Shown: positions 1-3,000 of the stretch, piece after piece
Layout: each line of letters starts with the position of its first letter
Numbering within the stretch: position 1 is the first letter of the stretch
IMG/VR virus record: IMGVR_UViG_2531839409_000002
Direction: 5' to 3' (one strand)
Length of the DNA stretch: 9,661 nucleotides
Source: a virus
Taxonomy: Monodnaviria > Loebvirae > Hofneiviricota > Faserviricetes > Tubulavirales > Inoviridae
Position numbers: made by a program

Positions 1-3000
1 ATGATTTTGAATCACTGTCGATAGTAGCCAGTTGACGGCCAGTGTCAACGATTCCCGCCAGATTCTGCCATCCTTACCATTGGTGCGCATAATGTGCGAC
101 TCGTTATGTTGAAAAGGCCGCTGCGAAAATGGCCTCCGCAGCGGCCTCTTTAGCATAACGTCATTGTGCGAACCAATTAATTATTTCTTGTCTAATATAG
201 TACTGCTTATATTAGAATTCTTAGCTGTAAAAAGCATATCTGCTTCTTGGTATATTTCACCTGAACCACCACTAAAGTTAAACTCGATGTTTAGGTCATT
301 ATAAGTAATGCTTGGAGAGTATTTTCTGTTTATTATAATATAGCCAACTGAATTTGCAGGAACTTCAACCCTTTCTTTCGGTTTTTCCATAAGATATCCA
401 TTATCATTAACAAATTCCACATTGTATTTCTTATACACCCTTATTTCTTCTTCTTCTCTTTTCTTTTCATCTTTATAATCAAATGTATCAACATGTTCGG
501 AAATATATTGAAAGTTTTTATATATTCTCCATCCGCCTGAAACTTTCAGTGCTTCTGATGTTTTATTAATTATTCTAAATTTGAACATTATTTGATTTTT
601 TTCTATCTTGGCATCTATTATTTCAATAGGGTATTCATTCGCTCTTAGATTGTAATTTTCAGTTATCAGTCCATTACCTATAGGATTAATCGAAAGTCCA
701 GAATTGTACATATTGTTATAAATCATGTAGTTATATGCTTTCAATGGGCCCGCGAGAGGGTTGTCTTCTGTTTGGATACTGATGACCATATAACTGAAAA
801 ATGCAGCAAAAATAGCACCGCCTAAAATAAAAGAACCTGCACTCGGTGGCACTGAGTCTTTTGAAAGGTATGTTTTCCCGTCAGTATCTTCTGATCTTAT
901 GGAAGGCATGGTACTTTTATCAAGAACTCTTGTTCCTTCAATCAAGAGCACCATGGATATTTTTTTATTTGCTAATATTCTATCTATCTTCACAAAAGAA
1001 CCTTCGGTAGTTGCATCATGATCACTTGCAATTACAGTACAAGACATACCGTTTGGGACTTTTATTTCTACATTTTTTTCTTTATCCTTACCTTTATTAA
1101 ATACTGATGCATTTATTACTATTGCATTGTCAGATATTGAGGTTTTACTCAAGGAGTTCCAACAGGATAAGTAAAGTTGTCTTTTCCTAAATATAGATAA
1201 AAACTTATTGAGGACTAATGCCACAAAAAAAGAAGTAACTACTTTCAATGTATCAGTAATCAAGTCCGGCATCTTTTTTCTCATTTTACTTAAAATCCAG
1301 TGTTTTAACTGATCAAAGATGGTCAGATAAAATGTAAAAATTTAGTATTTGAATATTACCCTAGTTAACCTAGGGTAATATTATATCAATAATATGAATT
1401 TCTTCGGTGCCACCAATAAAGCAGACCGTATCCGACGATAAGAATTCCAAAAAACATCAGAGACATTCCCCAGCCAGTTCCGTACCACGAAACCATATCA
1501 TCGAAAACCAACCCACCCATTTCACGTACTCCGGCAGCTTCCTTAAGAATTGGTTTGAATACCGGAATCAGAAGGGCGATCGCCAGTGGGGCACCCCAGC
1601 GAACAAGACCTGTTTCCATTTTGATCCCGAAAAAGATCCCCGCACCGACAACAAGCAACCAGACTATCAGGCCAGGCGCAGTTTCCAGTGCTGTTTGCCA
1701 TTCAACATCGAAAGTTTTCATTAACCAGGCAACAACTGCCAGACAGAAAGCAAATACGCCCACGACAACCAATTCAACGCCGCTTGTTTCGTTATTTCTA
1801 CTCATCATTTTGATCCTTTTTCATTGTTCAAAATTCGCACAATAAAGAACGTGCAGTGTTGGTAATACTGCACGTTTGTCTCATTCCTGAGACTGTTAAT
1901 CCTTTTACTCTTCTCCAGACACCGCTTTTTTCATAAACATTTTAGTACTGTAAGTGTATGAACTTAAGGCAGAAACCTGCCTTGCGAGTGCCAGAATATC
2001 TTGTTTTTCCAGTGTCCTGATGTTCCACACGATGAAATTATGTGCGTTAGTGGTTTCTTCATCAGTATATCCATCCGCAGAAGTGATTAGCTTCCGCTCG
2101 GTAGCTTCTTCTTTAACATCAAGAGCATAGCCATAAGCTAAGGTGTTTAAGTCTGCACCCGTAATTTTAGCTATCTGAATGATGTCACTGAATTTAGGTT
2201 CAGTTTTGCCGGACGCTATCCTGACCAGCGTACTCACGCTAATGCCAGTCTTCTCGGCCAGTTCTTCATAAGTCGAGTGTTCCAGAATTACCTTTTTGAT
2301 ACGTTCTGCTCTCTGTTTGTCCGCCATAACTTCATGCTCATTGTTGCCCATCTACTTGGCTCCATCTTAACAGTGGTTTTTCAATAGTTAGATTTGATGC
2401 TCATTTTTGACAATTTAAACATTGCAAATGTATTGACTGTCAGATCTGAGCATATTACATTGTGACCATTCAATCTGCTCACAAATGACTATTGACACAT
2501 ATTTTGATGGGTGTGACTACTTATGATCGACTGGTTTACCGGAATCCTGCCTTGCACACACCGACCGTTACCGGCTGGTAGTGTCGTCAGCGTCGATGCT
2601 GACGGTGCAGTGGAGTGGGAAACAGTAAAACGGTTGACCGTTCGCGGTTCGCATGAGTCCACAATGAAAGTAAGGTCTGTTGGATCTGATGGTGAAGGTC
2701 GGGCAACACATCTCTACATTGACGGTAATCCATCAAAGTTTTTGCAAGGTCACTCTGTTATCGGTTCCGACGATTTGCAAGGGTTGGTGTTAACAGCTTA
2801 CGCCAGAATATTGGCATTACTGCATATTCCTCATGATCTACCATCCTATCGGCAGGTCATGGAAGGGCAATTTAAGATCTCGCGCATCGATATCAATTAC
2901 ATGTATTCATTGTCAACATTAGAAAATGTCCGCGCATGGTTATATGCCGCAGAATTTAAAGCTAAAACTCGCCACGGTCGCGCCTGTGGTAAAGGTGGCA

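Follow-up and report, generated by a model that had tools for sequence, protein, structure and literature searches.

A predicted repressor-operator region, exchanged as a probable immunity cassette, upstream of rep in a CUS-1/YpfPhi-type filamentous prophage

The DNA between the divergent repressor and rep genes of this filamentous prophage is probably the immunity and control region of the CUS-1/YpfPhi element, in which a strong predicted rep promoter (P_rep) is overlaid by three dyad sites for the phage's own repressor, the whole being exchanged as a cassette in the manner of rstR-ig-2-rstA. The window analysed here is the whole stretch of 9,661 nt. A sequence-only reading of it had placed a 171-nt gap between the two genes and a sigma70-like promoter facing rep within that gap, and both are located as it described, i.e., the gap spans 2352-2522 and the promoter reads TTGACT-17-TACATT.

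By its sequence, the window is a CUS-1/YpfPhi-type (E. coli/Yersinia) filamentous prophage (inovirus). It is 100% identical to prophages adjoining hipA in E. coli genomes, some of them present in tandem copies, and it also matches a circular form of 9.6 kb at 100%. Strain SCU-101 carries tandem copies, and the prophage there adjoins hipA/hipB; this adjacency, together with the tandem copies, points to integration at the dif region. The Y. pestis YpfPhi region is 99.7% identical in DNA over 1825-5350 (3.5 kb), the repressor protein is 100% identical to its Y. pestis homolog, and the near-identity to YPO2273-YPO2279 that marks the CUS-1/YpfPhi inovirus lineage is found. The genes follow the inovirus order of rep, ssDNA-binding protein, coat proteins, pIII-like, pVI-like, Zot/pI, and secretin. 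The CUS-1 prophage of E. coli O18:K1:H7 and the YpfPhi (CUS-2) prophage of Y. pestis, with its YPO2273-YPO2274 gap, are the same element as the window. Extraintestinal pathogenic E. coli and pandemic Y. pestis carry prophages of this type at dif, with modest effects on fitness. A megablast search of the phage collection returned no match, and a scan of genome contigs with the repressor retrieved only Y. pestis, one MAG, a decayed Erwinia fragment, and a cyanobacterial MAG (a weak, partial match at 41%).

The YPO2273-YPO2274 gap has been described as presumed promoter/transcription-initiation DNA, and YPO2273 has been called an RstR homolog whose role is "awaiting experimental demonstration" (PMC4266046). 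In the literature searched on CUS-1/YpfPhi, no operator or promoter map of the element came to light. The kind of element is largely known, and defining its operators is a new but routine step; the 18-bp sites with their arrangement and four E. coli cassette types were worked out from sequence in the present analysis. The genes, their signals, and the cassette edges are as follows:

1849-1875, minus strand: putative terminator of the repressor gene, a hairpin with a 9-bp stem and 9-nt loop followed by a T-run; left-hand cassette edge
1905-2351, minus strand: repressor gene (148 aa; XRE/HTH_3 N-terminal domain and helical C-terminal domain), a YPO2273 homolog in the rstR position
2352-2522, no strand assigned: intergenic control region, 171 nt, with a predicted role equivalent to that of ig-2
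2360-2372, minus strand: repressor translation signals and candidate promoter, with the Shine-Dalgarno sequence GGAG at 2363-2360, 8 nt before the ATG
2433-2461, plus strand: P_rep, with -35 TTGACT at 2433-2438, a 17-nt spacer, and -10 TACATT at 2456-2461
2523-3575, plus strand: rep, the replication initiator (pII/RstA role; Phage_CRI, E=1e-73), whose ATG is the right-hand cassette edge

The repressor matches Pfam HTH_3 (E=1.6e-9; 38.1 bits against a gathering threshold of 23 bits) and is a member of phrog_3557 (E=4e-74). Its AF2 model contains a confident 434-Cro/SinR-like five-helix HTH (pLDDT 85-91 over the HTH) and a purely helical C-terminal domain, and a structure search retrieved 434 Cro, SinR, lambda cI N-terminal domains, and C-proteins, i.e., the generic XRE fold only. 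Pfam matched no Peptidase_S24 domain in the repressor, a domain that a lambda cI/LexA-type self-cleaving protein would have at its C-terminus. A 57%-identical homolog in an Aeromonas phage also occupies the rstR position, beside Rep_trans/RstB genes.

P_rep scores 13.4 bits with a rough position weight matrix, the best on either strand, and is the sole high-scoring plus-strand site facing rep (the next best has 9.8 bits); in a simpler scan it scored 9/12. Every related module has a predicted promoter of equal strength in this position (13.4-14.7 bits), and the P_rep hexamers are conserved among variants, the -10 being TATATT in L012. Transcription from P_rep would start near 2465-2469 and is predicted to drive rep and the downstream phage genes. 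Ten variants, up to ~18% diverged, all have a gap of the same length and free of indels, and the GC content of the gap is 34% vs 41% for the window. No Rfam match was found over the window, and the fold of the predicted 5' UTR is no more stable than those of its shuffles (z = +1.4).

The leftward promoter, from which the repressor would be transcribed, is less evident. Nothing above 6.9 bits was found on the minus strand with the same rough matrix, and no site there is convincing. One candidate, which is not secure, is the extended -10-like sequence TGtTAAGAT (2372-2364), 12 nt before the ATG and directly upstream of GGAG, which is the sole extended -10 on the minus strand. It is kept in type-1 variants and reads TGtTAGTAT in L012; a TAGAAT/TAAACT-like hexamer lies ~12 nt before the repressor ATG in L013, L015, and L017, and L075 likewise has TAGAAT ahead of its Shine-Dalgarno sequence. 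The other candidate, likewise not secure, would overlap O-A (below), by analogy with TTGATA-17-GAAAAT in L075.

The repeated unit of the gap is an 18-bp pseudo-palindrome, ATGSTCA-N4-TGASNRT, which occurs three times, with the centres of O-A, O-C, and O-B exactly 39 bp apart. These sites, a possible fourth, and the shorter repeats to which the sequence-only reading drew attention are as follows:

2334-2351, plus strand: O-D, possible auxiliary half-site, ATGCTCA-ttgt-TGCCCAT, over the repressor start codon and first codons; 1 mismatch
2397-2414, plus strand: O-A, predicted operator, ATGCTCA-tttt-TGACAAT, centred 39 bp upstream of O-C, at ~-60 relative to the P_rep start
2436-2453, minus strand: O-C, predicted operator, ATGCTCA-gatc-TGACAGT, filling the P_rep spacer and overlapping 3 nt of the -35
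2475-2492, plus strand: O-B, predicted operator, cTGCTCA-caaa-TGACTAT, centred 39 bp downstream of O-C, at ~+8 to +25
2440-2449, no strand assigned: palindrome tcagatctga, the inner TCA-GATC-TGA of O-C, which holds a GATC (Dam) site
2425-2437, plus strand: direct repeat copy 1, CAAATGTATTGAC / caaatgtattgac, whose 3' part is mostly the -35 region
2482-2496, plus strand: direct repeat copy 2, CAAATGacTATTGAC / caaatgactattgac, made up of the spacer and right half of O-B and the conserved TGAC

The core TGCTCA-N4-TGAC is found in three exact copies and one with a single mismatch, all within 2335-2489 (0.57 expected; 0/200 shuffles), and a degenerate 18-mer search recovered the same cluster. Across the 10 variants, 5 of the 42 half-site columns vary, vs 57 of 129 elsewhere (p=9e-5) and 6 of 12 in the 4-nt spacers, the motif having been partly defined on the very sequences that entered this test. 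In O-A, ATGCTCA and TGACAA are invariant and two of the four spacer positions vary. The half-sites of O-C vary at two positions only, both in L012, where the changes yield a 14-bp perfect palindrome (GGTCAGATCTGACC); its spacer is GATC, GAAC, or GAAG among relatives. O-B lies just downstream of the predicted P_rep start; a conserved TGAC(A) comes directly after it, at 2493-2497, and the block 2486-2496 is invariant among variants. At O-D, the fit to the motif is limited to the left half, and the evidence is weak because the sequence is coding and the right half lacks the inner TGA.

The presence of the motif follows the recognition helix of the repressor. Repressors that are 55-60% identical and have the recognition-helix core GISVSTLVRI in common are found on other phage backbones (L013, L015 with RstB/Rep_trans, and L075/L076). 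In these distant relatives the perfect palindrome ATGCTCA-N4-TGAGCAT stands upstream of the promoter, at the relative position of O-A, and an O-B-like ATGCTCAcaaaTGACyATTGACA stands downstream of it (seen in L015 and L075/L076). The motif occurs three times in nearly every same-helix locus with intergenic DNA (L026 has 2 exact copies); 32 other loci, most of them heteroimmune relatives, lack it. A repressor that is 75% identical and has a changed helix (NVRTLVRIATAK) is accompanied by sites of the same arrangement, GGACA-N4-TGTCC and AGACA-N4-TGTCT. The distant relatives have no central site in the promoter spacer, so repression from the flanking sites may be ancestral and O-C may matter less.

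In the arrangement that we propose, P_rep would be a single strong sigma70 promoter reading rightwards into rep and the remaining phage genes, and the 148-aa HTH repressor would bind as one dimer per 18-bp site at the three sites. Occupancy of O-C would exclude RNA polymerase from the promoter spacer, and binding at O-A and O-B, which flank the promoter, would probably be stabilised cooperatively through the helical C-terminal domain. The 39-bp spacing is a non-integral number of helical turns, so cooperativity on one face of the helix is not obvious. The repressor may regulate its own gene through O-A and perhaps also through the half-site over its start codon. The sequence-only reading had called the region the likely lysogeny switch, and that holds insofar as this is a divergent regulatory region; a two-state switch is not apparent, as one regulator is visible and neither a Cro-like antagonist nor a LexA box was seen.

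That reading had also proposed a comparison among related phages, and across the cassette similarity breaks off at the ATG of rep and is regained at the stop codon of the repressor gene. Where rep genes are 93-99% identical, the relatives have no similarity left over exactly 1895/1907-2522: L004 resembles the window over 1802-1894 and then over 2523-5899 (99%), and L005 does so over 1384-1906 and then over 2524-3911. The hairpin at 1849-1875, which may be the repressor terminator, is kept in both of these heteroimmune loci. Since the loss of similarity is confined to 1895-2522, the repressor and gap appear to form a swappable immunity cassette, of which there are at least four types. Repressor and sites would thus be exchanged together (1895-2522) among phages otherwise near-identical in their genes, and from this joint exchange the cassette, i.e., repressor plus intergenic region, is predicted to set the immunity type. 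The earlier suggestion that the operator layout could define immunity is in this sense borne out for the repressor and gap, with the difference that the predicted operator unit is the 18-bp dyad and not the palindrome or direct repeats. The cassette boundaries allow prophages to be sorted into immunity types by sequence alone, and the map makes the repressor, promoter, and operators directly testable and offers part of an explanation for the possible co-existence or tandem stacking of near-identical filamentous phages. Understanding of this class of element is unchanged by the map, which describes an ordinary though well-defined phage immunity region.

We considered whether what the repressor recognises is the caaatg..tattgac pair of direct repeats, the 10-bp palindrome, or both in their own right, and find this quite unlikely. 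Both repeat copies exist, a pair that is expected by chance only 0.01 times, and tcagatctga does sit inside the promoter spacer. However, copy 1 overlaps the -35 hexamer, so that the repeats do not flank the promoter as had been described, the copies differ by a 2-nt insertion, and relatives have not kept CAAATG in either copy (CAAACC/GAAGTG in L012 and TAAATG in Y. pestis). Perfect 10-bp palindromes number six in the window, and at least one turns up in 21% of shuffles of the 171-nt gap; the palindrome was therefore rejected as a stand-alone signal and is merely the inner core of O-C. Its central GATC is replaced by GAAC/GAAG in relatives that keep the half-sites on either side unchanged, and the distant GISVSTLVRI repressors go with ATGCTCA-N4-TGAGCAT sites, not with caaatg repeats. 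The same central GATC could make P_rep/O-C sensitive to Dam, such that unmethylated new or incoming phage DNA would be expressed differently from a resident prophage. Three heteroimmune cassettes with differing operators (the window, L004, and L017) have AGATCT within their P_rep spacers and GATC is under-represented in the window (19 vs 38 expected), but this epigenetic control seems improbable to us, as GATC is lost in L033/L034 (GAAC), L040 (GAAG), and the type-2 L030 (AGTTCT) and absent from the L005, L013, L015, and L075 modules, and the AGATCT common to the cassettes may simply have been inherited from a common ancestor. That the conserved repeats are instead a replication origin, with a nicking or binding site for Rep, is extremely improbable. 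The region does lie directly upstream of rep, and the stretch ttttcaatagt (2378-2388) is loosely like the f1 nick region (TTCTTTAATAGTGG); yet this stretch falls where conservation within the gap is lowest (2382-2396), and the motif tracks the recognition helix of the repressor, not Rep. Rep proteins that are 96-100% identical adjoin wholly unrelated gap DNA (L004, L027-L035), so the cognate origin must lie elsewhere, and an origin in the gap was rejected.

Host factors might dominate, either RovA/SlyA-type proteins acting on AT-rich DNA or LexA as in CTXphi, with the phage HTH protein playing a minor part. In favour stand a report of RovA binding at the YPO2274 promoter region, together with raised expression of the phage genes in a rovA mutant (PMC4266046), and the part that LexA plays as a co-repressor of PrstA in CTXphi (PMC9502458); the gap is also AT-rich relative to the window. 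In contrast, no CTGT-N8-ACAG LexA box with at most 1 mismatch is found in the gap, the best candidate having 2 mismatches and no CTG, which speaks against the LexA version, and neither cassette swapping nor the helix-linked 18-bp sites would be explained by host control. We regard dominant host control as unlikely, and host control as such is complementary to repression by the phage protein rather than exclusive of it: as RovA also controls this promoter in Y. pestis, repression may not depend solely or chiefly on the phage protein. A further thought is that the operators are targets of identical-helix repressors of IncP-like plasmids, in a plasmid-phage conflict or trans-immunity to which a Dam-sensitive GATC might add control. 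Copies of the repressor with identical HTH and recognition helix are indeed found on widespread IncP-like conjugative plasmids, and no matching operator sites were found on an IncP-like plasmid carrying the repressor homolog; we consider such a role rather unlikely.

The repressor-operator region proposed here has its closest counterparts in other phage immunity systems. The CTXphi repressor and intergenic region are reportedly swapped as a heteroimmunity cassette, as they appear by sequence to be in the window phage. RstR footprints are long and are not known to have obvious symmetry, whereas the window sites, as 18-bp dyads, have the short form usual for 434/lambda-type repressors. The CTXphi ig-2 is 138 bp long and holds three RstR sites and adjacent divergent promoters (PMC4762005); the window is similar in its divergent HTH repressor and rep genes, its compact gap (171 bp), its three repressor sites, here predicted, and its strong rep promoter, here at the level of consensus. 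It differs from CTXphi, where LexA co-represses PrstA, in having no LexA box in the gap, and its Rep belongs to the pII/Phage_CRI family, not Rep_trans. To the lambdoid systems (434/lambda/P22) it is alike in having an XRE-type HTH protein, three predicted 14-18-bp dyad operators that overlap a lytic-type promoter, and a specificity that would be set jointly by helix and operator. Unlike them, the window has no Cro-type antagonist gene or S24 self-cleavage domain and a single strong promoter is evident, and the phage uses rolling-circle replication and does not lyse its host. In Pf4 (Pf4r) and SW1 (FpsR), a phage repressor similarly controls replication/production genes and superinfection immunity (PMC8402870; PMC4762005), with other repressor families and region architectures, the SW1 region being 621 bp with long overlapping 5' UTRs.

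The genes of the window can be read, from their products, as a filamentous phage set.

Predicted genes of the window
181-1284, minus strand: ORF of 367 aa, function unknown, without Pfam domain
1386-1808, minus strand: ORF of 140 aa, function unknown, without Pfam domain
1905-2351, minus strand: HTH_3 protein of 148 aa by domain match, the repressor
2523-3575, plus strand: pII-type replication initiator, rep (Phage_CRI and G2P_X_C)
Further plus-strand genes: G5P-type ssDNA-binding protein, small coat proteins, 570-aa pIII-like protein, DUF2523 protein, Zot/pI, and secretin

Prophages that adjoin hipB/hipA in human E. 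coli isolates, often in tandem, are 100% identical to window 1800-3600, and a circular record of 9,565 bp, evidently the replicative form, matches it at 99.9%. Identity to Yersinia pestis is 99.7% over 1825-5350 and 100% for the repressor protein. This near-identity to both E. coli prophages and Y. pestis therefore places the window in the CUS-1/YpfPhi (CUS-2) lineage. YPO2273 has been described as an RstR homolog whose role "awaits experimental demonstration", and RovA is reported to bind the putative YPO2274 promoter region (PMC4266046). The two left-arm ORFs match only phage families of unknown function (phrog_17621 and phrog_4174) and are cargo; other genes take their place in Y. pestis and in other cassette types. 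The stretch at 61-178, kept (86-93%) in all four immunity types, is partly self-complementary, adjoins the chromosomal junction, and is probably the dif-like attP/XerCD recombination region of the phage. The annotation of the 100%-identical prophage in E. coli SCU-101 (L001 7382-19792) gives Zot a longer gene (1137 nt) and includes no secretin, whereas the window and the circular 9.6-kb form each encode a 414-aa secretin. The assembly/export module is therefore not the same in all prophage copies.

A sequence-only reading had described the 171-nt gap between the repressor gene and rep (2352-2522) as a likely lysogeny switch with a promoter, the palindrome tcagatctga, and two caaatg...tattgac repeats, and the positions of all these features match the sequence. 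The rep-facing promoter (P_rep), TTGACT (2433-2438) and TACATT (2456-2461) with a 17-nt spacer, matches the consensus at 9 of 12 positions and was the sole strong site when both strands were scanned, i.e., 13.4 bits against 9.8 for the runner-up and 6.9 for the top minus-strand site, on a rough weight matrix. A repeat search returned an imperfect inverted repeat of 27 nt (2397-2423/2427-2453) and a direct repeat (2398-2422/2476-2500), and one 18-bp unit explains both.

Predicted 18-bp repressor sites
2397-2414, plus strand: predicted O-A, ATGCTCA-tttt-TGACAAT
2453-2436, minus strand: predicted O-C, ATGCTCA-gatc-TGACAGT
2475-2492, plus strand: predicted O-B, cTGCTCA-caaa-TGACTAT

The site centers (2405.5, 2444.5, and 2483.5 for O-A, O-C, and O-B) are spaced 39 bp from one to the next. 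In the 9.6 kb, the core TGCTCA-N4-TGAC is matched exactly three times and once with one mismatch (0.57 expected by chance), all within 2335-2489, a cluster reached in 0 of 200 shuffles and returned also by a degenerate 18-mer search. At 2334-2351, the fourth match runs over the start codon of the repressor gene; we treat it as doubtful because only its left half fits and it is coding sequence. The earlier palindrome does lie inside the promoter spacer (2440-2449) but means little by itself, since 21% of shuffles of the 171 nt yield a 10-bp palindrome and the window holds six perfect ones; it is the inner TCA-GATC-TGA of O-C. Both caaatg(N0-2)tattgac repeats are likewise present (0.01 expected by chance), but the first copy does not flank the promoter and instead overlaps its -35, and CAAATG is unconserved in both copies among ten variants of the cassette type. 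The second copy consists of the O-B spacer and right half-site, followed by a conserved TGAC. The observation thus holds and its interpretation was largely right, with the predicted operator unit redefined as the 18-bp unit.

These ten distinct variants (the window and the related loci L003, L008 of Y. pestis, L020, L026, L032, L033, L039, L040, and L012, the last with an 85% identical repressor) align with zero indels, and 62 of the 171 intergenic columns vary. Variation affects 5 of 42 half-site columns versus 57 of 129 elsewhere (Fisher p=9e-5), and 6 of 12 positions in the 4-nt spacers of the sites. The central GATC of O-C becomes GAAC in L033/34 and GAAG in L040, and two changes in L012 make O-C a perfect 14-bp palindrome, GGTCAGATCTGACC. 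From this conservation, the half-site therefore reads outward as TGA-S-N-R-T, with TGAGCAT as its best form.

Repressors of 55-60% identity that keep the recognition-helix core GISVSTLVRI are found on different inovirus backbones (L013, L075/76, and L015, which is Aeromonas-type with RstB/Rep_trans). In these loci, a perfect ATGCTCA-N4-TGAGCAT precedes the -35 of the rep-side promoter by about 16-18 bp, and ATGCTCAcaaaTGACyATTGACA, near-identical to O-B of the window, lies downstream of that promoter. TGCTCA-N4-TGA occurs in three copies in nearly every locus sharing the helix for which intergenic DNA was available (two exact in L026) and is absent from the 32 other loci, most with other cassettes. 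In L017, whose 75%-identical repressor has the changed helix NVRTLVRIATAK, the sites are GGACA-N4-TGTCC and AGACA-N4-TGTCT in the same layout as in the window, including the trailing ATTGACA. Taken together, conservation within the type, the distant repressors, the locus specificity, and the changed helix with its changed sites link the 18-bp unit with the DNA-reading helix of the repressor.

Against L004, whose rep region is 99% identical, similarity covers 1802-1894 and returns from 2523; against L005, it covers 1384-1906 and returns from 2524; against L017, the repressor gene is 76% and rep 94% identical, with no similarity detectable in the gap at 2331-2503. The exchanged segment is therefore bounded by the stop codon of the repressor gene and the start codon of rep. 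Just past that stop codon, a hairpin at 1849-1875 (9-bp stem and 9-nt loop, then a minus-strand T-run) is probably the repressor gene terminator; kept even in the heteroimmune L004 and L005, it marks the left edge of the cassette. At least four types of cassette are found with this Rep family.

Proteins of the cassette types
Present type, as in the window
Paralog of 150 aa, 40% identical
L017 type, 148 aa
Unrelated 60-aa protein with TGAACTCA repeats (L005)

The rstR-ig-2 cassette of CTXphi follows a heteroimmunity pattern, and repressor and intergenic region are swapped here in the same way. CTXphi ig-2 measures 138 bp and has three RstR sites and adjacent divergent promoters (PMC4762005). 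Lineage and kind of control region are known; what is new is the detail of the operator map and of four immunity cassettes, with no new principle. In E. coli SCU-484 (L059), 3501-4230 corresponds to window 1905-2506 followed by a pIII-like gene, a natural deletion derivative in which the repressor and all three predicted operators remain while rep, the ssDNA-binding gene, and the coat genes are gone. This defective prophage could still confer immunity.

Other readings of the gap were rejected: a replication origin, given that unrelated gaps adjoin near-identical Rep proteins; an RNA element, with zero Rfam matches and an unstructured 5' UTR; a LexA operator, none being found in the gap; and an obligatory Dam site, as GATC is lost in several natural variants. 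AGATCT, with its Dam GATC, lies in the spacer of the rep promoter, 2-4 nt downstream of the -35, in the window (2441-2446), L004 (2910-2915), and L017, three heteroimmune cassettes with differing operators, and is lost in individual variants; either common ancestry or function may account for it.

By analogy, and because no other strong promoter was seen, P_rep would drive rightward transcription of rep and the production genes. Because O-C covers the spacer along with 3 nt of the -35, repressor dimers bound there would obstruct polymerase, and O-A and O-B would probably make binding cooperative by way of the helical C-terminal domain. The AF2 model of the repressor (mean pLDDT 71) has a confident 434-Cro/SinR-like HTH and a helical tail. 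Distant relatives have flanking sites only, and the older mechanism may thus be bridging across the promoter. A domain search found no S24 domain in the repressor, and a LexA box is absent as well, so these features point to no particular induction route; RovA/SlyA-type host control is a plausible extra layer.

Among candidates for the repressor promoter, the best conserved is TGtTAAGAT (2372-2364), an extended -10 immediately 5' of the GGAG Shine-Dalgarno. The other diverged cassettes that were checked (L012, L013, L015, and L017) have a hexamer (TAGAAT/TAGTAT/TAAACT) about 12 nt ahead of the ATG, and TAGAAT is likewise 5' of the Shine-Dalgarno in L075. Use of such a -10 would make the mRNA almost leaderless, with the conserved Shine-Dalgarno unaccounted for; alternatively, the element may belong to the translation initiation region. 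L075/76 have a plausible promoter, TTGATA-17-GAAAAT, whose spacer is the palindromic operator and whose equivalent in the window, around O-A, is degenerate. As these are candidates only, we do not call the region a demonstrated two-state switch.

In E. coli and Salmonella, a 122-aa protein homologous to the phage repressor is encoded on IncP-like conjugative plasmids of ~41-45 kb (L006 2790-3158; L058 36370-36738); the match in the window is at 2170-2312, the HTH part of the repressor gene. HTH and recognition helix are identical (63% for the protein, 91% for the DNA over the HTH), and related protein clusters extend over hundreds of contigs. No matching operator site was found anywhere on the plasmid, and the homolog may represent plasmid-borne immunity against this filamentous phage type.
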